Assembly: GCA_002633005.1 (NCBI GenBank)
Contig: NMRA01000160.1
Location: 331,640 to 395,639 of the forward strand
DNA: 64,000 bases
Source of the DNA: Phoronis australis
Taxonomy: Eukaryota > Animalia > Phoronida
Direction: 5' to 3'
Below the pieces are notes generated by a model, which worked only from the letters and a program-made list of their open reading frames with translations, did no database searches and was not told where the DNA came from. Below, piece after piece: positions 13,520 through 64,000 of the stretch; within the stretch, counting starts at the first letter, position 1, and every line of letters starts with the position of its first letter. Both the position numbers and the translations under genes were made by a program.

Positions 13520-14833
13520 TGCAATGGTCTGGATATGTATGGAGTTATTAACGTCGTAACCTGCCGCGACGAATCTGCAATTTCCATGCGGCACATTGAC
13601 AGTACGCATCGACTTTTAGGAAGATTTTTGTGCTTTTATCGCAAATTTGTTGCAAACACGCTGGAGCAGGGCGCCGTAAATGCTATCATAAGAAATAGCA
13701 ATTACTCGTGGTTTGTTGGGAGTTTTGTGTTTGATATGGGCAGCTGAAGTGAAGCACCCGTGGAATTCCTAATCCCGAGTGTCATATCTTGTAGTATATT
13801 GTAATTTGTATTGGAGGCGATCAGAAGCTGAGAACGTCTGTGGTATAAATAAGGTTTTGCATACTTTTACAGACACTGGCACGGCATTCAAGGTAAACAA
13901 ATATGAAACTTATCAGAAATCTGAATTTCACTGTCAAAATTCTTCACTATTCTGTCGCACACGCTGGTTTCAAACTGTAGAAAATCTCTAAACAACTCAA
14001 GTGTTCTTCAGCGGAATTTTCAAAATGGCAGTTTTTAATGAGAGTCATCTGGTGGAAAGTTTTCTTTAAAAAAGTAAAATAACACCGTAATACATCTGGT
14101 GGCAGTAAAGTTTTCTTTTATGAAAACTGAATATTTTTACTGTCACAAATCTGATGGAAATTTTGTAAAGAAAACTTAAAAGATAAATTAGTAAGTGCTC
14201 TCCTGGGGGCAAGCCTGTAACTGTCCTCATGTGTTCAACTGAAGTCTGTGTGTACCGCTCAAGCATTACAATGCCAGTTTCGGGTGTTTACTGGCGGGGT
14301 GATACGGAAGGGTTCACTCAGGTAGTGTCGTTGGAAGTAAAGCGGTAAGCGGTACACGCGGTAAGAAGCAACAAATAACCAGTACTAGGCCAATACTGTC
14401 ATGTTTACTGGGCAGTTGCCAGTCGAGTACAGCGACGTCTTTCGTGAAAATGGATAGGGAGTGATTCCTATCCTTCCTTGAGCCGGATTATCTGCTCAAC
14501 TGTTTGTGTCGACGTGAGACGAATTGTGTAAGAATAGTCAGATGGCCCATGGTTAGCACCCTTGGTCATTGATACGAGGAGGAAAATGAAATTGGTTTCT
14601 CATCGATAAAAGAGAAACGTGACTTTCGTGCCTTGAAAGTTTTGAGCTGTATTAATTATTAACCGCGACTCCTGCTACAAAAGCCAACCAAATCGCTGTA
14701 TTTCACACAAGTTCGTGTTCTGCCAATCAGTGAATGTTACGTACAATGTGCGAACACCAGTGCACGCTGGTGGATTTTCGTTACATTCGTAATTTAGTGT
14801 TTTGAGGATCAGCAAGGAATTCAGCAACCAACT

Positions 14834-15886
14834 ATGGATTATTCGTCCTTAAGCCAAGTCAATGAATTTACAGCTGAAAATCATTCCAAATACTGGTACG
14901 TTGACAACGATATGCCTTTCGCAATAATGTATGTACACATGATCACTGGTTTTATCATTTCCGTTGTAACGTGCGTTGGAAATGCACTGGTGTGCCTGCT
15001 TTCGTTGAAATACGACTGTATCCGGAAGGAAGATCTCAGTATTGTCGTTCTGGGATTGTCTATAACAGACTTAATGACGGGGATAACCATACCGATAAAT
15101 TCTGTAAGAAAGTATGTGATTCCTTTATTTTGGGAACATTTGCACATGGACCTGTTGAACACCAAAGCTGCATGCTGGACCGCAATGTACGTGGCTGCAT
15201 TTCCGTTAGCCGTGTCTAACTTGATTGTCTGTATACTGTCGGTGGACCGGTTTATCCCCATTCGCTATTCTTTTCAACACCCCGTGTGGATGACTCGCAA
15301 AGTATACAAGACGTTGATCATCGGAACGTATTTCGTATACGTGCCCGTTGCAGGGGCTCTTCTGTGGATAGCCGCAGATGACGATTATGATCCTTCCTTC
15401 ACCGTTTGTGTATTCGAGACTGCATTTAAACCTCACGTTGCTCGCCAAGTTTACGCCTCGCTTACAGTTTACTTACCAAGTTCTGTAACCCTGTCTTCTC
15501 ACGTCTACATAGGCCTAAAAGCGTTCCAGCAACGCAAAAAGATTCACAGCGTTTCCTCTGATCCAATCGATGTGAGAAAAGCATCTCAGTGGAAGATAAC
15601 GAAAAGTATGTTGAAATTTGTGGTGTTGTACGCCATATGCTACCTGCCCATCGTAGTAATGAAGAACGCGATTTCCGAGGGCAGAGACCTACCATGGGAA
15701 ATTCAATCCCTTAAGTTGGTATCGGAACAGTTAATTCTCGTAAATTCGATGATAAACCCTTTCTTTTACGCCTTTTCCCTACAGCAATACAATAAAGGTT
15801 TCCGCAAGTTCTTTCAACAGTGCCGCGAGGAGATACAGGATGACTTTTGTAGCAGAATGCTTACATTAAGAAACCGCGAAAAATAA
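14834..15886 (+). CDS. Intronless class A (rhodopsin-like) 7TM GPCR, orphan
   Basis: 350-aa ORF with 7 hydrophobic segments: TM1 GN, TM2 LSITDL, TM3 Cys and DRF, ECL2 Cys, TM6 CYLP, TM7 NSMINPFFY. N-terminal glycosylation sequon NHS. Confidence 0.93.
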   Translation: MDYSSLSQVNEFTAENHSKYWYVDNDMPFAIMYVHMITGFIISVVTCVGNALVCLLSLKYDCIRKEDLSIVVLGLSITDLMTGITIPINSVRKYVIPLFWEHLHMDLLNTKAACWTAMYVAAFPLAVSNLIVCILSVDRFIPIRYSFQHPVWMTRKVYKTLIIGTYFVYVPVAGALLWIAADDDYDPSFTVCVFETAFKPHVARQVYASLTVYLPSSVTLSSHVYIGLKAFQQRKKIHSVSSDPIDVRKASQWKITKSMLKFVVLYAICYLPIVVMKNAISEGRDLPWEIQSLKLVSEQLILVNSMINPFFYAFSLQQYNKGFRKFFQQCREEIQDDFCSRMLTLRNREK

Positions 15887-31071: not shown

Positions 31072-33191
31072 AACTCAAAAGGGGTTTGTTTTTTTCAAAA
31101 AAAATAGAACGTTTTGTATTTCGGCAAAAAGAAGAGTGAGGTCATGGCTTGAGTGCGGGTGAGAATTATATTAGGGTATTACCAATACTAATTATCAACT
31201 TAAAAATGTTTTAATTTATATTTAACTACTGTTTGTTAGTCTTTGTATGAGTTAGGGTTACAAATTATAAATGTTTTAATTTATTGTTATCTAAGTTAAG
31301 TACTCTAATTATAATTTCATCGCTTTATTCTCGTTAGCTGTTTCATAATTCATGATGTGTTTGTGAATTATTTAAAGTCGTTTGACATTGTTTTTGAAGA
31401 ACTTTTGACTAGTTTAATTGATAGATAGTTCAAATTTTGACACTTGTTCAGTATTGAAATTTTTAGCTATCCAGAATAAAAAGAATGTTAGAAAGACCCT
31501 TCGTGCATGTGTTTTACTTAACTCCATTTTAAAGAATGCCGATCGGTCAACAATTCACAATATTTAAGTACAATTCCCCACAGCTACGATGTTTTCACAA
31601 ATCGCCTATTTCAAAATTTAATAAAACAAATGTGGGGAACTGATAGCAGGAAGAGTGGATAGCGCAACAACATTGAAGGAACTTTTAACAATCGGTTTTG
31701 GCCATAGCATAAACAAAAAAGATCGAGCGACTTTCAAGCAATTTATTTATTATTGACAATATTTTGAGAGACAAAACAGAGCGAGTGATCTTACTGTATA
31801 CAAGTAAATATCAAATCGAAGAAAAAAACGCCTCTTGATATATGTTTTTGCTATCACGAGAGAATTAACTAAACTGATTTCGTACGACTTGCTACCGAAC
31901 TTGCCGACCGTCCTCCAGCTCTGAGGGACCCTCACGTCCTCTTCTCCCTCTTCATCAGTGCCTTTCGCCCACGACTCACATAATTATGTCCCCCTCTCGA
32001 TTCCTACATGTACGTTATGAAGTATGGCACACGCAACTACAGCTTGACATGCCTTGTGAGGGCTCACTCGTAAAAAACTATGTAAGCAAGCAAACCGCCT
32101 TTTCAAAATTCCAAACGTTTGCTCTATGCAAACTCTTGCTCTGCACAGCGCTGTGTTGAACGCTTTTTCGGCATTGTCAGCAGTGTTGAGAAAGGGTGTC
32201 ATCAGGAATGGCCGACACAGGTATCCTGAATCCCCTACCAAATAACCTCTATGCTCCCCTGCATTAAACAGAAAACGAAAGAGTCTGTGAATGGAATGTC
32301 AAGAAGCACGAACGAAATGGTCACTAAGTCATGCTTGTAGCAGGGGGCCACGGTTCTGGACGTACTACTCGTCCAGTACTTAAGGGTCCGTCTTGGCAAG
32401 AATTTGGCGACCGCCTGCAAGCGGGACTCACACCCATGAAATGTGCTGTAACCTGTTCAACAAATACACTTTTTCCATTATGACAAACGAGCCCCCTCCC
32501 TCCCCTGAGGACCAAAATGGGATCTTAGAACCAAAATGGGAAGGGAACTTTTCGTCCCTAGCAGATGAAAATGTTGGGTTCACTTCGATCAGATTGAACA
32601 ATTGAGGACTAAAAACAGCGTTTGGCAGACGGAGCAGTTTGGAAACTGGAAAAGGCAGGCTATAGGCTTGGATCACTGCGACTGAGCCATGCAAAGGTCC
32701 ACATTTCCACACTTCGCGCCCCCATTTCAATCGCTGTCTGCTGGCTTGAACATTTTACGTTCTGCAATAGTCTTAATGCATGTTTCAGTAAGAACATTGC
32801 CTTAATTTCAACGCGTTTAAATTTTCATTTGATAGTCCACGTAATAGTAAAACACGTAACACCATATTAATTTATTATACCTTGTTCAAAGTGATTACAT
32901 AAAGTAGACGTCCGAAAGATGCGACTGTCATGGACACTACCCGGCAACTTTGCCACACAACTTGTTTTACGGAAAGTGGAATCACAGCACAACTGCAATG
33001 GGATTAAATTACTAGGTTTTAAATCTATCATATTTATCGAATACATATTTTCACTTCGCCTCATGAAGGCGGAACTTTTGAAATACCCAAGGTTGCTGGC
33101 ATGCCCAGTGTTTTCTTTTTTTTGAACTTATATGTGCAGAACCTCTCGCTGTTACAATATGTTGTTCATTCCCTGAGCAACATTTTTCTAC

Positions 33192-41726: not shown

Positions 41727-44501
41727 TTATACCTCACGCCTCAGTATCAACCGCTTAATAAAACCAATAGCAAGAATGAGCCCAACGGATGAAACCACAA
41801 AACCAGTTGCGCAGACGATAAGGGAAATTTTGACTCTTTCGGTAAAGCTTTCTACCATTTTATTAACCGACGTAGGACATTTTTCTAATTTGAAAGCGAC
41901 ACGACCCACCATATTCTTTGCCGCACAGGAATACTCATTAACGCAACCTAGTTGCATGTCACGTGCTCTGACTTTGACTTTTCTCGAGCTATATGGGTAG
42001 AAATAGTGACTGGAAACATTTAGAAGTGTTCTGGGTAAGTTTCGAATCTGAATTTTGGGTGCAGGGTCCCCGGAAAACACACATTCGACGGTAGCAACCT
42101 TAGAGTCTGTCATTATTCCAAATCTCTTTAAAACTGGTTTCTGACATGTCAGGTTGAAAGAAATGAAATCACGCATTGTTACAGTGACGGGCGTGGAACA
42201 AATTTGACGGTTGCTTGGTGAAAATTTCAGCGACCCGTTCAATAGAAGTTTCTGAAGAGGACGCAGTAGACAGTTACAGTGGAGAGGGTTTCCCGCAAAC
42301 AAAAGTTGAGGATTCATTGACTTCGTATCGGTCGCTTTCCGCAAACTGGTTATCGAGAAAGATCGCAGTTTGTTGTGTGATATATCTATATGTCTCGCGT
42401 GTGGTAAAGCATTTTCTTCTATGTATTCAATTCGATTATGGCCAAGTTGAATTAATTTCATGTGCTTGAAGTTGCCAAGAAGGTTGGACTGGAGGGTTAT
42501 TAAGCGGTTGTTTTTCAGCAACAATTGATCGAGATTCGATAGATGGTTGAACGCGCCGGGTTCTATTTGTTGAATCACATTGTTTGCCAGATTGAGATAG
42601 TGAAGTGAACGTGACGCATTCTTCAACATTGCCACGGAAACGTGGTGCAATCGGTTGCCATACAAATGTAACTTTTTCAAGCTAGGTAACTTTTGAAAGC
42701 CAGCATCCCCTACATGATCGATCAAGTTCGACACAAAGTAGATTATTCTAAGAGACTTAGATGTTAATATAGATTGTTCAAGACATTTCAGCTTATTATT
42801 ATTTAAAACCAACTTTGTAAGATTAGGAAGAGCATCCAGCGTACCAGGCTCGATCAGGTGTATGTTGTTGTGGGAGAGGTCGATTCTGTCGAGGTAGGTA
42901 AGTCCAAAGAACATCGGTGCAGATACAACAGTTAGTTTGTTTGAATTTAGATCGAGAGACGACATCCTGGTTTGGTAAGAAAACGCGTGACTTTCTATCC
43001 ATCTAAGGTTCATCTTTAATATTATGTCCGGACTTTGAATATTTTGCAGAAATCCACAACCAATAGTTGTGTCTTTCATTCCATCGTGGTTGATTCGAAT
43101 ACTCGGTCCTGAAAGTGGCCTTAGAAATGTGCTGTTTTCATTCACTGTGCGAAGAAAGATGTCAAGGGACCTGCTAACGTTTATGGAGGGGAGATCCTCT
43201 GGCCTCCTCACCTCGATGCTTAGAGTTTTCAAAAGTCGACTTGAAAATACACCGTGTGGCACTATAGCCAAGGGATTGCCATGAACAAACAATGATTTTA
43301 AGCTTCTTGGAAAGTAGAACATCGTTCTAATATTGTTATTATCAATCCGTAGAATCTGGAGGTTCTTGGTCTCTTGAAAAGTATTTGGTTCCACGTATGA
43401 TATGTCATTATAGCCGACATCTAACTCGGCTAAGTTCGACAGTCCTTTTAACATGCTTCCATTAAAAGCCGTCAAGTTATTACTCGCAAGATTAAGACTG
43501 TTCAGAGATGTAAGGTATTGAAAAACCCTTTCTGGTAATTCAGAAATGCCGCTTGAGAACAAGGAGAATTCTTTAAGGTGACGGACATCAGCGAACGTTA
43601 AATTTGACAGCGAGTATAAAAAATTATTTTTTGCAAGGCGTAAATCGGTCAACGTCGGTGTAGATTTCAAGGCAGACACATGTATTTTCGTCATCCTATT
43701 TCCTTCGAGACTGAGTAGTTTTAAAACACCAAGACCCACCAGACCGCTTTCTTCTAATTCCTCTATTTGATTCCGATCCAGGTGAAGAATATCTAAAGAG
43801 AGGCACCTAAGGAATGGTGACCCTTGCAGTGATCGTATCTTGTTTTCAGTCAGATCTAATCTACGGAGATTCGGTAAATTACGACAGAAGTCAGGCATAA
43901 TTAAAACTAAATCATTGTAGGACAGATCCAGCACAGAAAGAGTCTCCAAATTTTCAAAAGCGCCCTGTTCAATGTAAGATACGTCATTATTAGCTAGGAA
44001 CAAGCTATGCAGATCCCTCAATCCTTCAAACTGTGCACGGCGTAGAGTTTTTAACTTGTTTTGCTCAAAATGAAGGGATTTTAGAGATGACATTGGAAAA
44101 AACACACGATCTGGAAGAAAGCTTACTTTGTTGTTGCTGAGATCCAGACTGAGTAGAGAAACAAGTCCTTCGAACGATCTTTCCGAGATATGGGTGATGG
44201 CGTTTGCGGCCAATCGGAAAAATATCAGGTTGGTTAACTGCTCAAAAGATTCATCGACAAGAGATGTCAAGTTGTTCATTGAAATAGTTAGGCTTGTCAC
44301 ATAGTCTCGTACAGGTGAAAACGCATTTCCTTCAATTTCCTGAATTCGACAGTCTTCTAAAGCGATGAAACGAGCACCCCAATACTGTTCCATAAACGTT
44401 TTGGTCAATACCGGAACAGGTTCCTCGCATCCTGATGAAGAGACGACGATCACTAGCACGTTCGTACAGCTCAAAAAGAGAAGCAAACCAATTAACTGCA
44501 T
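41727..44501 (-). CDS. Intronless LRR + LRRCT + Ig + TM receptor, paralog A
   Basis: 924 aa from the first in-frame ATG: signal peptide, more than 20 LxxLxLxxN repeats, NPLHCNC..C cap, Ig-like C(VFSGDPAP)..YSCAAKN, TM helix, short tail KRLILRREV, no TIR domain. Confidence 0.92.
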   Translation of the reverse strand: MQLIGLLLFLSCTNVLVIVVSSSGCEEPVPVLTKTFMEQYWGARFIALEDCRIQEIEGNAFSPVRDYVTSLTISMNNLTSLVDESFEQLTNLIFFRLAANAITHISERSFEGLVSLLSLDLSNNKVSFLPDRVFFPMSSLKSLHFEQNKLKTLRRAQFEGLRDLHSLFLANNDVSYIEQGAFENLETLSVLDLSYNDLVLIMPDFCRNLPNLRRLDLTENKIRSLQGSPFLRCLSLDILHLDRNQIEELEESGLVGLGVLKLLSLEGNRMTKIHVSALKSTPTLTDLRLAKNNFLYSLSNLTFADVRHLKEFSLFSSGISELPERVFQYLTSLNSLNLASNNLTAFNGSMLKGLSNLAELDVGYNDISYVEPNTFQETKNLQILRIDNNNIRTMFYFPRSLKSLFVHGNPLAIVPHGVFSSRLLKTLSIEVRRPEDLPSINVSRSLDIFLRTVNENSTFLRPLSGPSIRINHDGMKDTTIGCGFLQNIQSPDIILKMNLRWIESHAFSYQTRMSSLDLNSNKLTVVSAPMFFGLTYLDRIDLSHNNIHLIEPGTLDALPNLTKLVLNNNKLKCLEQSILTSKSLRIIYFVSNLIDHVGDAGFQKLPSLKKLHLYGNRLHHVSVAMLKNASRSLHYLNLANNVIQQIEPGAFNHLSNLDQLLLKNNRLITLQSNLLGNFKHMKLIQLGHNRIEYIEENALPHARHIDISHNKLRSFSITSLRKATDTKSMNPQLLFAGNPLHCNCLLRPLQKLLLNGSLKFSPSNRQICSTPVTVTMRDFISFNLTCQKPVLKRFGIMTDSKVATVECVFSGDPAPKIQIRNLPRTLLNVSSHYFYPYSSRKVKVRARDMQLGCVNEYSCAAKNMVGRVAFKLEKCPTSVNKMVESFTERVKISLIVCATGFVVSSVGLILAIGFIKRLILRREV

Positions 44502-47500
44502 TATCACAGGTCGACATGTGCATGCATTCCATGCGATGCTATCGTATGAGAGAATCAGTGCTCTTGAAGGCTGTTTTATACTTTTGCCTACTCAGTTCAC
44601 GAAACGATACGATGATTGAACTCGCACTTACTATGATGAGATAGCGACATCTGGTGACAGCATCCAAACATGAATCTAATGGATGAACCCTTCAACACAG
44701 CGGGGTCATACACTTTAATCTCATATTAACTAATCAAACGTGTGAGATTAACATAGGCCGATTTATGATATATTTGACCTAAAAGAAACTATTTGGTAAA
44801 AATTATGATTAAGAGAAACTCAAATAAATTAAACGATAACCATGACACCGAGAATTTCATTTTTAAGGAAATGCACTGGTGCAAATACGGAGATAACAAA
44901 TGTAAAGTAAATAGCAATACCTGCATTGTAACAACAATAGTGCCATTATCCACACTGACAATTTCTTTTATATCATTTTCCAACACGATATTTGCATAAA
45001 AAAGAGTTTCCACTCATCTGAGCAACAAGAATTATACTGGCAGTAGCCATAATTTTGGTTTCCGTTAATGGAGCTTTGTCCGCCAGCCTGAGGTGTAGAT
45101 GGGCAACCCCAGGTGCCAGTGGATTAGGAGACCTTGATATAATTTTCAAGGTGACAGCTAGAAAATGAAGTTTTGACGTTGTTCGCATTCTCTAGTTGCC
45201 AATATTGTGTTTATCTTTTTCCGAAACATATGGCCACATCTTTCGCAATTTTCATATCCTTTGGAAAAGTAGCTGTGCCTTAACATCGATTGATGATACT
45301 AACAAGTTCTTTTATAATCACTGGTTTAATCAATTTCATGAGTTTGGTGATAATGTTGTCAAAACGTCGATTTGTATTTATTTTCAATAACTGCATGAAA
45401 TTTAAATTTTGTTTCCGCAGTGTCCAATGACACTACTCCTCTGCTTTCATACACCGTTTTGTATTTTCACATGCGCTGTTGAAGATCTTGATTAATTTCG
45501 GCATGACGTTTGTTAATAGTGGGAGTGGACCTTTTCAAGCGCAGATCCAGGATTTTGTCCAGGGCGTCTGAAAATGGACCGGCGTAGACTGCTGGCCGTG
45601 CGTCGGATTCTTATTCCATTACGGTGTTCGAAAACTGACCAAGCAGAGGGGGGGGGGTTGGGCTCCCCTTTAGAACAAAAGCTGCTTCTCTGAAGTATGA
45701 GATGGTGATGGGGGTTGTATTATTAACTCATCAGTTCATTGCATATAATCCTAGATTTTCATAGATCTTCATTGTTTCATCCATAGAACTGAAAGTCCGT
45801 GAAGAAAAAAATCATGGTCTCCTTCGTCGCTGATGTGGTATTTGATTGTTCGGCATCTTGCTCGATAGATAGTTTCACAGCCTAGTGACGTCATCTAGAG
45901 TCTTTTCATCAAATTGACAGTGACTGATTGACAGAAAATTGTGTAAGTGGGTTATGTAAAAAACTGACTACACAACAACTGTGAAAGAGACAAGATTTTT
46001 TCATTCTTGCGTTGGGCTCAATAAAAATGGCAGTAAAAATGAAGGTTAGCTCATGATCCAAAAATTTGCGATACAGATCGGGAGAGCGATGAAAGTGAAT
46101 ACAAATGGCCTGAAAATGACCAGTGAAAATGATATTTTGTATTCTAAAATGGGATAACATTAACAAATCAATTACTCTATTCAAACTAGTTTTTTGTATT
46201 TTATTTTTTCTATTTCTTGCCACTTCGTTATTTCTGTTTTAGTATGAAGCCATGAGGAGTAGATGCTGACGAAAGTCACCCACTTCCCAGTACTTTTATT
46301 TTGCGATTTTTAAGAAAATTACAAACTGGTTGTAGATATAGTTAAAAAACTTATATAATGTCAGGCTCAGGTTTCTTTTATCAAGGCCAGCTGATATGCT
46401 AAGTTTCAAAAGGATCGGTGATTTTGCATATATAGCCCACTATCTGGTTTTTATGTAGAATCGGTCTTAAATTTTGAGATTATCATTTTTGCATTCAAAT
46501 CCGTTTTTGAGCATTTTAAATAAGGACAAAAATCACAGAGTTGTCTTACGTTTGATCGCTCCGACTTGGTACGAAATCTACGCCTCACTATTAAAGAAAT
46601 GACGTCCACCCGCATCCTTCTTTGGCAAGCCCTCCAGCTTTTTTAAAAGCCCCCACCTGCATCAATGAAACTGGTTTGTGATGAAAAAGAAAACCTAGAA
46701 CTTTTGCTGATATCTAGAGTTTTTCTGTGGAACGTAACAAATACCCCAACTCTGGTGGCCATAGGCAATTACTAGACTTAGTCTGTTCAAAAATAGTTCG
46801 ACAAACGTACAATTCATGAGAACTGGAAATAGCAAAAACATCAAAAGCAGAAATGGACGCTTGCCAATGGATTTGAGGACAGTATTAGAGATAATGTCAT
46901 GTTTTTTCGTGTCAGCTACAATAATGGTTACATGTTGAGCCAATATGACCGGATCAAAGATTAGATAATACACGCTAGTGTCAGGAAGCTGTCGCAGTTT
47001 GCATTTCGATGTGAACACCTGCCAACCTGTATAGTGATCGGATGGATATTGCAAACCACGAAGTTGTTCCGCATTAGGTGATGTAACACTAAAGAATCAC
47101 ACGGAAACTCTGTGCATTTTGCGTGACATGTAGACACAAATTAAAGTACTTCCATAAACACTGAGTAATTGATAAAACGTTTTCTGCCTGCATTTATTGA
47201 CATCAAAAACATGTTTGTGAATCAGAATTACACTTAGGATTTCTAAATTTAGCAACAACAACATACAACAATCATGCATACATTTACATACATAATTAAA
47301 ATCAGCCCCAGTTTCAAGAACCAGATGGGATGCAAATGTCCCCTCTTAGCGCCACCTGTAGAGTCACATATGATTCCGGTCGTTGCTTGTATTGGTTGAG
47401 TTACGTAGCGCAAGACACTCTTAAAACATTTGGAGTCACAAATCTTCGCTCATGGAACGGAAAAGTGAAATTATTGTGACAATTCAATATCCAAGCTTCG

Positions 47501-49485: not shown

Positions 49486-52293
49486 TTATACCTCACGCCT
49501 CATTATAAACCGCTTAATATGATAACCAACAGCCAGAATGAGCCCAACGGAGGAAACTACAAAACCAGTTGCGCAGACGATTAGTGCAATTTCAACTCCT
49601 TTGGCAAAGCTTTCTGCCTTTTTATTAACCGATTGAGGACATTTTCCAAAATTGAAAACGACATGGCCCACCATATTCTTTGCCGCACACGAATACTCGT
49701 TAACGCAACGTAGTTGCATATCACGTGCTCTGACTTTGACTTTTCTCGAGCTATTTGTGTAGAAATATTGACTGGACTCATTTAGGATCAATGTTCTGGG
49801 CAAGTTTTGTATCTGAATTTTGGGTGCAGGGTCCCCTGAAAACACACACTCGACAGTAGCAACCTTGGAATCCGTTATTATTTCAAATCTGATCAAAACT
49901 GGTTTCTTACATGTCAGGTTGAAAGAAAAGAAATCACGCATTGTTACAGTGACGGGCGTGGAACAAATTGGACGGCTGCTTGGTGAAAACTTCAGCGAGC
50001 CGTTCAATAGAAGTTGCTGAAGAGGACGCAGTAGACAATTACAGTGGAGAGGGTTTCCTTCAAACAAAAACTGGGTATTCATTGATTTCGTGCCGGCCAC
50101 TTTCCGGAAACTGGCTATCGAGAAAGATCGCAGTTTGTTGTGTGATATATCTATTAGGCTCGCGTGCGGTAAAACGTTTTCTTCTATATGTTCAATTCTA
50201 TTATGGGCAAGTAGAATTGAATGAATGTGCTTAAAGTTGCCAAGCAGGTTGGACTGGAGAGTTACTAATCGGTTGTTTGTAAGCGACAAATGCCAGAGAT
50301 TCGCGAGATTATTGAACGCACCGGGTTCTATTTGTGTAATCCCATTGTTTTCCAGATTGAGGTAGCGAAGTGAACGTGGTGCTTTTTTAAACATTGTTAC
50401 GGAAACGTTTTGTAGTCGATTGCCATACAAGTCTAAATTCTCCAAGCTAAGTAACCTTTGAAAACCATCATCACCAACATGTTCGATCAAGTTTGACGAA
50501 AACTTGGCTATTCTAATAGACCTAGAGGCCAGTATAGTTTGGTCTAGAATTCTTAGATTATTATGACTTAAAATCAGTGTTGTAAGGTTAGGAAGAGCAT
50601 CCAGTGTACCAGGCTCGATCAGATGTATGTTGTTGTAGGAAAGGTCGATTCTGTCTAGGTTTTTAAGTCCAAACAACATCGTTGCAGAAACGATAGTTAG
50701 TTTGTTTGAATTTAGATTGAGAGATGACGTTCTAGTTTGGTAAGAAAACGCGTAACTTTCTATCCACCGAAGCTTCATCTTTAAGCTAATGTCCAGACTT
50801 TGAATATTTTGAAGAAATGCGTGACCAATAGTTACGTCTTTTTTTCCATCGTGGTTGATTCGAATAATCGGTCCTAAAATTGGCCTAATAAATGTGCTGT
50901 TTTCATTCACTGTTCGAAGAAAGATATTCAGGGACATGCGCACATTTATGGAGGGGAGATCCTCAGACCTTGTCACCTCTATACTTAAAGTATTCAAATG
51001 TTGACTTGAAAATACATCGTGAGGGAATATAGTCAAGGGATTGCCATGAACAAACAATGATTTTAAGCTTCTTGGAAAGTAGAACATTGTTCTAATGTTG
51101 TTATTATCAATCCGTAGAACCTGGAGGTTTTTGGTTTCTTGAAAAGTGTTTGGTTCCACGTATGATATGTCATTATAGCTGACATCTAACTCGATTAAAG
51201 TCAATAGTCCTCTTAATATGCCTCCATTCAAGGACGTCAAGTTATTGTCCACAAGAAAAAGACCTTTTAGAGATCCAAGATTTTCAAACACCCCTTCTGG
51301 TAATTCGGAAATGCTGCTTGAGTACAAGAACAATTCTTCAATTTGACGGACATCAGCGAATGTTGATTTTGACAACGAGTATAAAAAATTATTTTCGACG
51401 CGTAAAATGATCAACATAGGTGCAGATTTTAAGGCAGAATCATGTATTTTCGTCATGCTATTTCCTTCAAGACTGAGTAGTTTTAAAACACCAAGACCCA
51501 CCAAACTGTCTTCTTCTAATTCATCTAGCTGATTCCGATTCAGAAGAAGAATATCTAGTGAAAAGCAGCTCAGGAATGGTGACCCTTGGAGAGACAGTAT
51601 CTTGTTTGCAGTCAGATCTAGTCCACGGAGATTTGGTAAATCGCGACAGACGTCAGGCAGAATTGAATTTAAAACATTGTGAGATAGATCCAGCTCAGCA
51701 AGATTCTCCAAATTCTCGAAAGCACCATGTTCGATGTAAGACACGTTATTATGAGCTAGCGTTAAGCTACCGAGCTCCCTTAACCCTTTAAATTGTCCAG
51801 TACGTAGTCTTTTTAACTTGTTTTTCCCTAAATTAAGGTAATTTAGAGACGGCATTGGAGAAAACACACGATCAGGAATGAAGCTTACTTTGTTGTAGCT
51901 GAGATCCAGACTGAGTAGAGAAACAAGTCCTTCGAACGATCTTTCTGAGATGTGGGAGATGTTGTTTGTGTCCAGTCGGAGAAAAATCAGGTTGATTAAC
52001 TGGTCGAAAGATTCATCGGCAAGGGATGATAAGTTGTTTTTTGAAATAGTTAGGCTTGTCACGTAGTCTCGAACAGGTGAGAACGCATTTGCCTCAATTT
52101 CTTGAATTCCACAGTCGTTTAAAACGATGAAACGTGCACCCCAATACTGTTCCATAAACGTTTTGGTCAATACGGAAATAGGTTCCTCACATTCTGAAGA
52201 AGAAATGCTCCTCACTCGCCCTCCCATCCAGCTCAAAATCAGAAGCAAAGTAATTAATTGCATTATTAGAGGCCGACAATACATGCAATCCAT
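49486..52293 (-). CDS. Intronless LRR + LRRCT + Ig + TM receptor, paralog B
   Basis: 935-aa ORF colinear with paralog A, same architecture. The true start may be the downstream MQLIT ATG (52263). Confidence 0.92.
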   Translation of the reverse strand: MDCMYCRPLIMQLITLLLILSWMGGRVRSISSSECEEPISVLTKTFMEQYWGARFIVLNDCGIQEIEANAFSPVRDYVTSLTISKNNLSSLADESFDQLINLIFLRLDTNNISHISERSFEGLVSLLSLDLSYNKVSFIPDRVFSPMPSLNYLNLGKNKLKRLRTGQFKGLRELGSLTLAHNNVSYIEHGAFENLENLAELDLSHNVLNSILPDVCRDLPNLRGLDLTANKILSLQGSPFLSCFSLDILLLNRNQLDELEEDSLVGLGVLKLLSLEGNSMTKIHDSALKSAPMLIILRVENNFLYSLSKSTFADVRQIEELFLYSSSISELPEGVFENLGSLKGLFLVDNNLTSLNGGILRGLLTLIELDVSYNDISYVEPNTFQETKNLQVLRIDNNNIRTMFYFPRSLKSLFVHGNPLTIFPHDVFSSQHLNTLSIEVTRSEDLPSINVRMSLNIFLRTVNENSTFIRPILGPIIRINHDGKKDVTIGHAFLQNIQSLDISLKMKLRWIESYAFSYQTRTSSLNLNSNKLTIVSATMLFGLKNLDRIDLSYNNIHLIEPGTLDALPNLTTLILSHNNLRILDQTILASRSIRIAKFSSNLIEHVGDDGFQRLLSLENLDLYGNRLQNVSVTMFKKAPRSLRYLNLENNGITQIEPGAFNNLANLWHLSLTNNRLVTLQSNLLGNFKHIHSILLAHNRIEHIEENVLPHASLIDISHNKLRSFSIASFRKVAGTKSMNTQFLFEGNPLHCNCLLRPLQQLLLNGSLKFSPSSRPICSTPVTVTMRDFFSFNLTCKKPVLIRFEIITDSKVATVECVFSGDPAPKIQIQNLPRTLILNESSQYFYTNSSRKVKVRARDMQLRCVNEYSCAAKNMVGHVVFNFGKCPQSVNKKAESFAKGVEIALIVCATGFVVSSVGLILAVGYHIKRFIMRREV

Positions 52294-52623
52294 GCAATGC
52301 TACCGTGTGACAGAATCAAAGTTATTGATTGCCGTTATATAGCTTTGCCGACTCAGTGCAACAAATAATATGGACTCGTATATGCTACGATTACACCACG
52401 ATGTCTGGTGACATCATCTAAACCTGAAGCTATTGGATAGCGTTATGTGCACGAGACAGTCCTAGCTGCCTGACATACCGGTAATCTTTTCTGTAAATTA
52501 ACCAAAAGTCATATAGTGGCATGCGTCGATTTCCACTATATTTGACCTACAAGAAAGTACTTGATGAGAAGTATAATTTAGAGAAACCCGAATGAAACCG
52601 TGAAACCGAATATTTCATTTTAA

Positions 52624-58020: not shown

Positions 58021-58314
58021 GAGAGCGCCTACCAGTGGTTCTACATCTACCGTAACAGATTTTCCTGAAACTTAGGTACGCACTAAGTCACCTTTTATTT
58101 TTCTGAAACGAGTCTCATTTTTGTCTCATGCTGATCTTGCAAAATGGATTTTTGGACACTTATTTCAATAAAAAGCTGCCAACTTTTCACCTCTATTAAG
58201 ACTTCTTAAAAGTTAGGAATAACTATGTTTTTTCTGCGAATGTATCTGAGCTTAGGATCGCGTTTCATATTTAAAATATAGACATTTTAGTATTAAAGTA
58301 CTGGTAGGACACTG
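58021..58314. mobile_element. Degenerate MITE
   Basis: Inverted ends cctaccagt / actggtagg; no clear TSD. Confidence 0.35.
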
Positions 58315-58779
58315 TTGGCATCTTCAGAATCAGTTATTCTGTTCTTAAGAATCCTCGTTGTCATACCAGAGACAGCAGAAAGGGAAACAAATCTCTTAGC
58401 GAAATCCCATTGGACGGCCACTGGCGGACATTGTTGTTTCATGGACCGCACGGACGTTTAGCGGGCGCGGGTGCAATAAACAAATATAACAACATATGAC
58501 GGCTCCGATCGGTAAAAAATCAACGGTGTTTTTTGCACTGCCTACAGCTTCAGCAACAGTTAATCGAAAATTACATAATTTTTTCGTCATAATAGGTTTA
58601 AAAACGGACAATCGCCGCACAAATAAAAAAGTTCATCTTGATTCGACGTTTCGTCTATTCATTAGACATCAACAGCTTATAAAGATCAAAACAACAAGTG
58701 TCGACCTACCAGTCAGGTTACATCCATGTGGTGATATGAGTGTAGCAAGAAATACAGGGAATAGTAGATAGGTCATTAC

Positions 58780-59302
58780 TGTAGAAAATTAATTTCAGTC
58801 TCTCGGGTTGGACCTGAACCCCAGTAGCACGAGCGACAGTCTAGCGTCTAAACCATTCGGCCAAGAGGCAATTGCCACTTGGCAAGCGGCTTAGAGAGGG
58901 TTTATCTGACTACATGTCGTCACAACCGCAAGTCACGCTTCACAACACTACTCCCCCTTCAGCCGAACAGGCGCGCTCCCTGGCTTTTAGATCTCAGCAA
59001 TACCCTAGCGTCGTGGAATTTGACCTCAGCAATGCTCTCTTTGTGTTCTGAATCCACCAGTACCAGGTCGCCCACTCTCCATCCGCGGCCTTACATCTTA
59101 GGGTTAATCGTGGATTTTCCCTTAGTTGGGCGCCAATGTAGAAAATTTCAGTATTTCCGGTGAGACTTGAACCGCGGTAGCACGAGCGACGGTCAAGCGT
59201 CTAAGCCATTCTGTCAAGAGGCAATGGCCACTTGGCAAGCGGCTTAGAGAGGCTTTATCTGACTGTACGTGTCGTCACAACCGGAAGTCACGCTTCACAA
59301 CA
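58780..59302 (-). mobile_element. TRIM (mini LTR retrotransposon) with tRNA-derived LTRs
   Basis: Two TG..CA LTRs (58780-58947 and 59137-59302); PBS TGGCGCCCAAC (59135-59125); PPT GAAGGGGGAGTAG (58960-58948); 189-bp noncoding interior; A and B boxes within the LTRs; flanks ttac/tcac. Confidence 0.85.
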
Positions 59303-59388
59303 TCACCAAAGCTGTAGGGTCACTGAGCTCTGCATGTTATTCAGAGAACCAGCAGCATACTGGTCCTGAATGGCCAATGATTATTTAA

Positions 59389-61628
59389 GTATCAGTCCAC
59401 GGATCCACCGACCACTGTACAGCCAACAGGCGGCAAGGTGGGGGGTCAGCCATTCAGATCCATGTTTAGTCTGATGAATCACATTAGGGATGAGAGAAAT
59501 TGGGTGAAGTATGACACCACAAAGTTTGGTGGTTTAGGAGATACAAGGGAAGTGTTCTTGGGGGCCAAAATGAGGCAATTTCTTGGTGTGGAATGAGTCA
59601 TTTTTGACCAAATTTTCTATTCCAGTTTCTACTTCAAACAGAATCGTTTCTGAACAATTTTGATATCACATGATAGGTTCATGACCAATGTCAGTAAAAA
59701 CGGCACCGACACTGCAATATCGGTTACCATGGTAACACTGGAACTGTTTCCGTGGAGGTACATTTCCTTCTTGTGAAAAACCAGCAGTAAGTTGTACCCT
59801 TATAGCGAAGCTGCCCCCGCGAGAAAACTAAAAATAATAACATGGACATGTAGAAGACTCCATGCCCTTGAAATTAATACAATAAAAACTTTGTCAGCCC
59901 TTCAGGCAGGCTTGGTAATAGGTGTCTGAATTTCACTATTTTCAGACCGCGTATGTGTATTTGTCATGTTAAACCAGTCACTAGTTGTGCGCCGTTTCTA
60001 CGCATTAATATGCCGTGGTATAATACAACAATTAAAAGAATTGGTTTGCTTAAATGTTTTTAATTAATTNNNNNNNNNNNNNNNNNNNNNNNNNNNNNNN
60101 NNNNNNNNNNNNNNNNNNNNNNNNNNNNNNNNNNNNNNNNNNNNNNNNNNNNNNNNNNNNNNNNNNNNNNNNNNNNNNNNNNNNNNNNNNNNNNNNNNNN
60201 NNNNNNNNNNNNNNNNNNNNNNNNNNNNNNNNNNNNNNNNNNNNNNNNNNNNNNNNNNNNNNNNNNNNNNNNNNNNNNNNNNNNNNNNNNNNNNNNNNNN
60301 NNNNNNNNNNNNNNNNNNNNNNNNNNNNNNNNNNNNNNNNNNNNNNNNNNNNNNNNNNNNNNNNNNNNNNNNNNNNNNNNNNNNNNNNNNNNNNNNNNNN
60401 NNNNNNNNNNNNNNNNNNNNNNNNNNNNNNNNNNNNNNNNNNNNNNNNNNNNNNNNNNNNNNNNNNNNNNNNNNNNNNNNNNNNNNNNNNNNNNNNNNNN
60501 NNNNNNNNNNNNNNNNNNNNNNNNNNNNNNNNNNNNNNNNNNNNNNNNNNNNNNNNNNNNNNNNNNNNNNNNNNNNNNNNNNNNNNNNNNNNNNNNNNNN
60601 NNNNNNNNNNNNNNNNNNNNNNNNNNNNNNNNNNNNNNNNNNNNNNNNNNNNNNNNNNNNNNNNNNNNNNNNNNNNNNNNNNNNNNNNNNNNNNNNNNNN
60701 NNNNNNNNNNNNNNNNNNNNNNNNNNNNNNNNNNNNNNNNNNNNNNNNNNNNNNNNNNNNNNNNNNNNNNNNNNNNNNNNNNNNNNNNNNNNNNNNNNNN
60801 NNNNNNNNNNNNNNNNNNNNNNNNNNNNNNNNNNNNNNNNNNNNNNNNNNNNNNNNNNNNNNNNNNNNNNNNNNNNNNNNNNNNNNNNNNNNNNNNNNNN
60901 NNNNNNNNNNNNNNNNNNNNNNNNNNNNNNNNNNNNNNNNNNTGTATGGTATTTAGGGGTACTATAGCCCAAAGTGATAAGTAGTAAAACGTTCAAAACA
61001 TTCAGGAGGAACTAACTTGTTGCAAAATATCGAAAAATATGAAGGACAATCGGATTTTACGGTGCTCACGCATCGATCTCAGATATATGACAATTTCTCA
61101 TTTTAGTACATTTGAGGTGCCAAAATGTATAACTAATAAACTGGCTGACAAAGTTTTTATTTTATGCAATGAAAGTAACATGTTTTGTCAACATTTTGGC
61201 TAAGTTTCATTCTCATAACAGTGGGGGCAGATTTGGTACAGCAGTGTACTGAACACAACCTCAAAATGGCATAACGGGGGGCAGTGTAGTAAAACTACTA
61301 AATGAGGGTGATAAATCGGAATCTTGTTTCAAGACATCTGTGTAACAATCTATAGGCACCACTAAACAATGCCAAGTGAATAATAAATCAATAGCTTTCA
61401 TTCAAGGAAAAATATGAACAGTTAAAACTGGACAGTTTTTATACCGTGAAAACATGGCTGCGAAACCGTAAAATGTGTTTGACCTATAACTTTAGAAAAA
61501 CAAAATATTTTGAGGAAATATTTTACCGCTGTTTATAGATCCCATAGGACTACATATGTGCCAAATTTGGTGAAAATCGGCTGACCCCCACCTTGCCGCT
61601 CATGGTTGGTGCTCTCGTGGACTAGTAC
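59389..61628 (+). mobile_element. Second, inverted copy of the TTAA/Sola3-like element, with a gap inside
   Basis: TTAA on both sides. 59389-60069 is the reverse complement of about 56945-57615, and 60943-61628 of 52624-53313, with few differences. Confidence 0.85.
60070..60942. other. Assembly gap
   Basis: N run. Confidence 1.
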
Positions 61629-61659
61629 TTAATGTACAGTAATTCTTTTATACGTCCTT

Positions 61660-61985
61660 TACATACTGATAAAACTTACTGAATTGGCTTGGAGATTGTT
61701 GCTAACTCAATGCCTATAGACGTTGCTTTTGTCTGAGGTGTGATATTCTCTCCTTCTGTCACAGACGCGTCTGTGTGTGAGTCCTATGTAGAATTCTTTA
61801 CAGTTATCACATTCAACTTTATAAACAACATTGCTTTTATTTAATAAAGGAATAGGTGACTTCAGTTTACACAGCACATTGTTAAGTGTACGACGAGGTT
61901 TGAAAACAACTATCATCTTAACGGCTGGGTCAATGCAATGTAAAAGACGAGATAACTGGCGTTTCAGCTTCAGACTACTAGGCCC
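61660..61985 (-). mobile_element. Penelope-like element GIY-YIG endonuclease fragment
   Basis: KSPIPLLNKSNVVYKVECDNCKEFYIGLTHRRVCDRRREY..SNVYRH. Confidence 0.8.
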
Positions 61986-61989
61986 AAGA

Positions 61990-64000
61990 CTCACTCTCAA
62001 CCGATTCTCGAACCAACACCCCACTCTGCGACCTGTAAAATGCTAAATCCTTCAAGAGCTTCCGCAATTGTCCTACCGATAACCTCCTTATCAACACGTC
62101 CACCCCTTTCCAAGACAGCAAAACCACCTGACACTCCCTCAAACACCTACCCCTAGGTGCCGCCTGTCCTAACTCCCTACATACCCTCACCACCTCCCCC
62201 AACTCCCCAAAAATTTCCCCCACTTTCCAACAACCACGCTATAATCACTGCTAAATCCCCACTCCCCACTGAAACTTCACCTACAAAACAACATCCCGCC
62301 CAATTACATTGCTCCGTCCACACTAACCTCTTCCCCGTAAACCACTCATCGTCCATGAGCAACCCCGCCAACCCCTCTGCCTTAACCTCCCGCTCATTAC
62401 TCCCCATTCTCCAAGCTAACTTCCTGAACCTCAACACAAGACTCTTCGCCATCTCCCTTCCTGGGTCCGCTTCTACCAGACTCGAAATAACCTTGAAAGG
62501 CTCCATCAGCTCTTCCCCTCTCAAAGCTGCCACCAATTCTTCGAAAACCCGTTGAGCCATCCTACAAACAATCTTAACAATTAATAAGGCATATAGGACA
62601 AATATACTCTTCCATATCACTGAACTTCTGCTCATTAGCTCCCACACACAGCACAAGAAACCACTCTAAACACCCATCACACTGAACCATTAAAGTCCCA
62701 TCGTTGGGTTCTCTACAAATGCAATGACATTTACTTTTAACACTTCCCACCTCGCCATAACCTCTGAATCATCCCTTACCTTTTTCACCCACCAAGGCAA
62801 CTTATATTCTGCTCATTTACATCTTTTCATTCTATCATAATTTACCACTGTCAGCCGATCTCTTGTCTTAACCTGAAACACATAATCCGACAATTTAGCA
62901 ACAATAATTGCCGGCTCCTCCCAACATGGCATCAACTTTTTATATAACATCGGATCTTTACAAACCCGTTCCTCCACCAACATCACCACTTCCCTTACCT
63001 GATAACCCAGCCGGTCAACACTAAGGCCATAGTATCCCTTCACAATCCTCTGAATATGTTTGGGGGGCATTCCTACCAATCTGATGTATATCACAAAGAA
63101 CAGTCTCCAACTTTTTATCATAATCCTCCTCAATCGTGCATTCCTCCTCTTCTAACAAGGACAATTCCGGGGACACCAGATCAGCTGGGGAACTTACCTC
63201 ACGTCCCAATATAAAAAATTCGGAATAAACCCTGTGCTCCGATTAACAGACGCTCTCATCGCACCAGCCAACTGAGATAAAAATAAATCCCAAACCTGTT
63301 GATGTTATCAACATAACATCAAAGTACATCCATTAATGTTCTGTTAAACCGCTCCACTTGACCATTGCAAGACAACCCATTGGCGGTCGTCCGACTCTTA
63401 TGACTATGTAACAATTTGCATATCAACTTGAACAATTTACTCTCAAAATCAGCTCCCAGGTTACTAATAATGTTCAAAGGAAATCCAGTACGAATAAAGA
63501 ACTCGTTAACTGCTGCCCTAGCTGTCACCTCAGCGGACTGAAATGGCAACGGCTCACATTCAACCCATTTCGTAATCCGATCAACCAACATTAGCACATA
63601 CTCAATTCCTCTCTCAGTCCAACTCAAAGGCCCTAAAAATCGACATGAACCCTCTCCATAGGAACTCCGGAATAAAACTGAGTCATAGGAGCCCTAGCCT
63701 TTCTGCTCGCCTTCTTCCCCATTCTACACTGAACACCTGACTCAACATGCCTCCGAACATCATTACTCATACCATTCCACGTACACTCCCTCAACCTTGG
63801 CCAACGTCCTCACAACGTACCATTGATGACCTGCTAATGCAACATCATAATATATATCAACACCTGATCCTTGAACGACTCAGGAACTAAAATCACCATT
63901 TCACCCCCTTTACTCCGCTTCATTAACAAGCCTCGTATTATCTGATATATTTCCTTATCGACAAAAAACTTCTTTTCGCCCCTAATCAGCAGAAACATAT
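61990..64000 (-). mobile_element. Degenerate Gypsy-type LTR retrotransposon: integrase region and downstream sequence
   Basis: YVLMLVDRITKWVECEPLP..FGFP-like..SRTTA..NGQVERFNRTL integrase core and KKLMPCWEEP..VVNYDRMK C-terminal module, with many frameshifts. Confidence 0.82.

Follow-up and report, generated by a model that had tools for sequence, protein, structure and literature searches.

A non-coding LTR element (TRIM) on the minus strand of a 64,000-bp stretch of Phoronis australis DNA, the whole of which is called the window below, raises two questions: what kind of element it is, and how an element with tRNA-type promoter boxes in its LTRs would be transcribed and mobilised. The answer to the first is that the element is an animal Helenus-type TRIM, another example of a kind already described in 2024, Helenus (TRIMp3) being the name for TRIMs with a tRNA-derived block in their LTRs (Kojima 2024, PMC10886601). 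The first-pass annotation had used the name Ajax for tRNA-bearing animal TRIMs and had considered them rare. However, the names were swapped, as Ajax is the 5S-bearing TRIM group, and Helenus is not rare, its listed hosts comprising six animal phyla, fungi and a lycophyte (PMC10886601). The accompanying suggestion of a new family survives in part: the kind is not new, whereas the family itself may be an unlisted one. As to the second question, we regard it as likely that the locus is an aged, gene-less copy that was transcribed by Pol III from the boxes of its 5' LTR and mobilised by the proteins of an autonomous Gypsy element.

Structure, insertion and dispersed copies

Read on the minus strand from 59302 to 58780, the element consists of an LTR, a 189-bp interior and a second LTR (Table 1). 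Alignment of the LTRs with one another (147 matches, 17 substitutions comprising 8 transitions and 9 transversions, and 6 gap columns; K2P 0.11) bears out the length, orientation and LTR termini that the first-pass annotation had given, and its description of the element as non-coding is matched by the lack of a Pfam match for the sole frame of at least 85 aa inside it (58852-59160, plus strand). The tRNA-Lys primer-binding site and the purine tract that it had proposed were likewise found, as was the TTTT run at the LTR end, which is present in both LTRs; sense-strand T4 runs occur within the element only at these two LTR ends. Because the LTRs are 11% apart and box A of the 5' LTR has decayed, this 523-bp copy is probably inactive.

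Table 1. Features of the element and of its insertion site, in window positions
Feature	Positions	Strand	Basis or remark
Whole non-coding LTR element (TRIM), 523 bp	58780-59302	-	LTR alignment and empty site
5' LTR, 166 bp, TG..CA	59137-59302	-	
3' LTR, 168 bp, TG..CA	58780-58947	-	
Primer-binding site, start 59135	59125-59135	-	11-nt match to tRNA-Lys-CTT as drawn in PMC10886601 Fig. S2, compared by eye
Polypurine tract adjoining 3' LTR	58948-58960	-	final 10 letters found 4 times in the supplement of PMC10886601 (Helenus)
Target-site duplication copy	59303-59306	unassigned	identical to empty site
Target-site duplication copy	58776-58779	unassigned	one changed letter
T4 run, 5' LTR end	59142-59145	-	upstream of primer site
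T4 run, 3' LTR end	58785-58788	-	predicted RNA end
Box A, 3' LTR	58853-58863	-	0 mismatches
Box B, 3' LTR	58810-58820	-	1 mismatch
Box A, 5' LTR	59206-59216	-	2 mismatches; 3'-LTR form in most related copies
Box B, 5' LTR	59163-59173	-	1 mismatch (last letter); most related copies fit the pattern there
Palindrome, 22 bp, 3' LTR	58861-58882	-	10 of 11 pairs; right arm extends into box A
Palindrome, 5' LTR	59214-59235	-	8 of 11 pairs; paired letters at 59226 and 59214 in most related copies

There is no second copy of the element within the 64,000-bp window, and the evidence on its mobility comes from public sequencing runs. Four of these (X1-X4) are DNA runs from one sample, possibly the window's own source, and their contigs give no copy number; the RNA reads carry the same species label, come from other individuals, are mostly less than 95% alike and are of unspecified strandedness. 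The sequence surrounding the element is another high-copy repeat, of which copies without the element exist. Such empty sites are paralogous copies of the surrounding repeat at 80% likeness, not an empty allele. At the empty site, 58773 is joined to 59302 through a single intervening letter, so that 528 letters are skipped and the net difference is 527, or 523 + 4; this joint was seen in one contig each of X1 and X2 and in two RNA reads of X5, and in a second X2 joint at the empty site, the 4-mer is present once. Thus, the target-site duplication is 4 bp in length, with one flank changed since, as read at this copy only, where the flanks differ by one mismatch.

In the focused analysis, 577, 490 and 411 contigs of X2, X3 and X4 were aligned, and 25, 18 and 19 of them, respectively, depart exactly at 59302, with continuations that are unlike (agreement 0.40-0.44). 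A further boundary is marked by contigs departing at 59137 (8 in X2 and 9 in X3), and several contigs, 0.9-1.8 kb in length, have in their middle a match that covers precisely one LTR, representing apparent solo LTRs. The element belongs to a mobile multi-copy family and is not a local duplication. The first-pass annotation had itself pointed to a local tandem duplication of a SINE fragment as the reading to adopt if other copies with shared termini and target-site duplications were missing. Such a duplication, mimicking LTRs by chance, would be in line with LTRs that are 11% different, with flanking 4-mers that carry one mismatch and with the single copy in the window, but it is very improbable, given an empty site of net 527 bp, sharp ends shared by many contigs, apparent solo LTRs, and a primer site and purine tract that are correctly placed; barring misjoined contigs, the empty site and the shared ends rule it out. 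The annotation's reading of a TRIM with tRNA-type A and B boxes and Gypsy-type insertion marks therefore stands, the element being multi-copy in the contigs and flanked by a 4-bp duplication.

Not all parts of the LTR are equally represented in the contigs. Summed contig depth rises to about ten times the level of the remaining LTR at 58838-58894 and 59237-59293, and 32, 28 and 22 contigs (X2-X4) depart at 58843, where they pass into a different tRNA-like half that has a box B of its own. This arrangement suggests a more abundant sibling family with the same LTR start, palindrome and box A, but with a different middle.

The neighbourhood of the element has features of its own. The flanking high-copy repeat (about 58600-58779 and 59303-59380) includes, on the minus strand at 58675-58649, a hammerhead-like core that deviates from the expected pattern by one letter and is unreported by Rfam. 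Penelope-type repeats carry hammerhead-like cores. Around the element and a gap at 60070-60942 lie two inverted pairs, one nested within the other, with arms of about 690 bp that are 95-96% alike (56945-57626/59378-60069 and 52620-53313/60943-61632); they may be DNA-transposon ends or assembly artefacts. Farther away are two tandem intronless LRR genes on the minus strand (41727-44591 and 49486-52299), with predicted membrane-anchor-like ends and 83% likeness over 3.2 kb, whose best database matches are at most 35% among the top ten; an LRR search gave 97 matches at 21-37% identity. For an intronless rhodopsin-family GPCR (14798-15886, plus strand), none of the 150 listed relatives exceeds 32% identity. 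A GPCR search yielded no match, and a profile search gave best matches of at most 29%, four of the ten top clusters being named (ribbon worm, Hydra, sea stars and annelid). The genes mark the host as an animal, with no phylum singled out by these searches. Broken DDE_Tnp_4 (Harbinger-type) transposase pieces lie at 31987-33127 on the minus strand.

Promoter boxes and the proposed Pol III transcript

The boxes were scored with two 11-nt patterns, taken in part from PMC10886601, against dinucleotide shuffles of the 3' LTR. In the 3' LTR, the two boxes together have a single mismatch, a score reached by none of 20,000 shuffles (two mismatches were reached by 7, and three by 86), and this pair is the best of the six with at most three mismatches on both strands of the whole window. 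In the 5' LTR, the presumed driver of transcription, there are three mismatches, and 93 of 20,000 shuffles of the 3' LTR have three or fewer. The spacing between box A and box B is 43 nt in both LTRs. Thus, the claim of the first-pass annotation that each LTR contains both boxes holds, but the pair that it quoted is a composite, its box A being that of the 3' LTR and its box B that of the 5' LTR. At the three off-pattern positions of the 5' LTR (59212, 59214 and 59163), approximately 60-85% of the X2-X4 depth has the fitting letter, as judged from 40 of 59 rows. Among the DNA contigs, other copies have retained the letters of boxes A and B better than this 5' LTR has, and the conservation across the family on which the earlier reading had been made to depend is indeed found.

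A tRNA search of the block, also proposed at that stage, recognised no tRNA with either ARAGORN or Rfam. ARAGORN reported no tRNA genes over the whole window, and none of the seven Rfam matches in 58300-59800 (E up to 10) is a tRNA or a 5S RNA. Predicted folds of the tRNA-like block include no cloverleaf (z -1.79, with 11 of 200 shuffles equally good).

The absence of a recognisable tRNA is compatible with a different history, in which an ordinary Pol II-transcribed TRIM once took up a tRNA-type SINE piece in its LTR, and the boxes are now passengers. The T4 run ahead of the primer site and the RNA reads, which mostly continue into unlike sequence, would also suit passenger boxes. We consider this history rather unlikely, as the tRNA spacing has been kept and the boxes are better preserved across copies than in this one. 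In addition, the abundant sibling seems to retain the palindrome and box A while having a different middle and a box B of its own, which points to selection on the boxes.

If the boxes are functional, as we think likely, TFIIIC would bind boxes A and B, and Pol III would start near 59224, at the centre of the palindrome and a short distance of a few bases ahead of box A. Because the first T4 run precedes the primer site, a usable template requires read-through at this position: some polymerases would pass the T4 run at 59145-59142, continue through the primer site and the interior, and terminate at the T4 run of the 3' LTR. The resulting RNA would be approximately 440 nt, with the tRNA-like block of about 80 nt repeated at both ends. 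Host tRNA-Lys would prime reverse transcription within a borrowed Gypsy particle, the purine tract would prime the second strand, and integrase would leave the 4-bp duplication. Human Pol III does read through canonical terminators to some extent, but T4 was an efficient terminator in vitro (PMC3141230), and read-through is therefore the weak link of the proposed mechanism. PMC10886601 itself states that no Helenus element has had its use of Pol III validated.

The efficiency of T4 would equally suit a scheme in which Pol III makes only an RNA of about 80-85 nt that ends at the first T4 run, with the template supplied by Pol II read-through and the boxes serving to keep the LTR open or insulated. 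The position of T4 directly behind box B in both LTRs is consistent with such a short RNA. On the other hand, a Pol III start combined with a stop at the second T4 run would yield exactly the terminal repeat that reverse transcription needs, and Cassandra transcripts reportedly begin in the 5S block of one LTR and end in the 5S block of the second (stated in PMC10886601), making the short RNA, in our estimation, unlikely as the sole Pol III product. The absence of T4 from the interior was dropped as evidence for the longer transcript, as 2684 of 5000 shuffles also lacked T4.

The RNA reads, from standard RNA-seq, show no pile-up of starts or ends on the element. None of 72 X7 reads is at 99% likeness, and 85% continue into unlike sequence. 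These reads support neither side on Pol III transcription, and no conclusion on expression is drawn from them.

In the case of the protein source, a Gypsy helper would fit the comparisons drawn in PMC10886601. The sole integrase-like sequence of the window belongs to a decayed retroelement at its end (62000-64000, minus strand), with a weak match at 63322-63693. This piece was rejected as a Gypsy partner, being below the Pfam cut-off and having no LTR at 61600-62200.

A palindrome at the predicted start site

The centre of the 3' LTR palindrome (Table 1) falls between 58872 and 58871, one base ahead of the tRNA +1 position. An equally good palindrome anywhere in the LTR was found in 21 of 20,000 shuffles, and only 4 of 62,284 centres in the window have palindromes of at least 10 pairs. 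The weaker pairing in the 5' LTR is not typical of related copies; for instance, at 59226 the paired letter accounts for 2060.8 of 2362.5 depth in X2. The palindrome segment is also part of what is shared with the more abundant sibling.

Similar stretches can be identified in published families. A tally was made by eye, with G-T pairs allowed and without a null model, over 76 non-insect animal Helenus LTRs in the supplement of PMC10886601, leaving out wasp and fungal families and counting close relatives separately. In 54 of the 76, a self-complementary stretch of 8-12 bp ends approximately 2 nt ahead of box A. By group, the palindrome was read in both coelacanth LTRs (2/2), in sturgeon and paddlefish (2/2), in carp-like fishes and their kin (14/14), in bivalves (33/51) and in ribbon worms (3/3), and in neither the ctenophore (0/1) nor Lingula (0/3).

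As read by eye, the letters of the palindrome vary widely among Helenus LTRs and the symmetry is kept. Almost every imperfect pair is a G-T on the sense strand, an indication of pairing at the RNA level, bearing in mind that G-T was allowed when reading. About 45 of the 54 palindromes, again by eye, are self-complementary through the centre. Such a centre is unpairable in a local hairpin and favours pairing between two separate copies, either of the first bases of the RNA with the 3' LTR arm or of two RNAs with each other. An RNA started at the predicted site would begin with the right arm only, and this arm could pair with its left counterpart in the 3' LTR, whether on the same RNA or on a second one. 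Pairing of this type would place the ends next to each other for strand transfer or dimer formation; for Ty1, end pairing and palindrome-linked dimers have been described or proposed (PMC4974528). Alternatively, the palindrome may be a fold-back by-product of reverse transcription at the start of the RNA.

In the LTRs of Ajax-1_NGe and Ajax-1_LiLo, the same palindrome can be read by eye, and a tRNA-type box A comes 3 nt behind it, the distance seen in the present element; both lie upstream of the 5S boxes (sequences in the supplement of PMC10886601). Section 3.7 of that paper does not mention a tRNA box in Ajax, and 'hairpin' and 'palindrom' have no uses in its main text. Nor was the palindrome described in the accessible parts of the literature searched (including PMC6934838, PMC13570524, PMC12859917 and PMC7215508), figures and subscription journals aside.

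It is possible, and we propose it tentatively, that the start-site palindrome acts as a pairing signal in the RNA, has been conserved, and identifies a single old lineage of animal Pol III TRIMs, represented in coelacanth, sturgeons, carp-like fishes, bivalves, ribbon worms and the present host, with Ajax derived by exchange of the box-B half for a 5S promoter. PMC10886601 argues for multiple origins. If the proposal is true, a single lineage would take the place of the numerous independent SINE captures envisaged in print, and animal Pol III TRIMs would gain a defined signal for end pairing or dimer formation. The palindrome offers a sequence-independent marker for judging whether animal Helenus and Ajax share one origin, and it makes the Helenus mechanism testable by predicting both the Pol III start and the paired bases of the RNA.

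Comparison with Cassandra, Ajax and Helenus

Cassandra, a plant group, is likewise composed of non-coding LTR elements with a Pol III promoter within the LTRs, but its promoter is 5S-derived, its primer site is different and it is restricted to plants (PMC7215508). It is the only group of Pol III-promoter LTR elements for which Pol III transcripts have been demonstrated (PMC10886601). The nemertean Ajax is also a TRIM with a Pol III-type promoter, and differs from the present element in three respects: 5S box A/IE/box C takes the place of a tRNA box B, the primer site is for tRNA-Leu, and the duplications are 5 bp long (PMC10886601). The 5S-derived box A/IE/box C shared by Ajax and Cassandra is absent here, and box B is of the tRNA type.

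The agreement with Helenus is more extensive. In animals, Helenus elements show 4-bp duplications together with primer sites of a Gypsy-like type; the present element, at 523 bp, falls within their reported range of 311-1263 bp, with TG..CA LTRs and boxes A (TRGCY..YGG) and B (GGTTC) (PMC10886601). Like them, it is below 1000 bp, has no coding capacity and a 4-bp duplication, has apparent solo LTRs and has a similar purine tract. The primer motif occurs 61 times in the supplement of PMC10886601 by motif search. A point on which the element may differ from the listed families is the block between its boxes, in which neither ARAGORN nor Rfam recognises a tRNA; the programs used in the paper were Censor and tRNAscan-SE. 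In the supplement, the first 12 letters of the LTR do not occur by motif search, and the LTR and interior match none of the listed animal Helenus families when compared by eye. The family may therefore be unlisted among published animal Helenus, a distinction drawn by eye and apart from later Repbase entries.

The nearest layout is found in the tRNA-Lys-primed bivalve families Helenus-3_ArIr, Helenus-3_MyGa and Helenus-1_PiIm, together with the nemertean Helenus-1_LiLo (PMC10886601). As in these nearest families, a palindrome lies ahead of box A, with an outer stem that is one pair longer here than in most listed Helenus families, and the first 15 letters of the interior are those of several bivalve Helenus families (PMC10886601).
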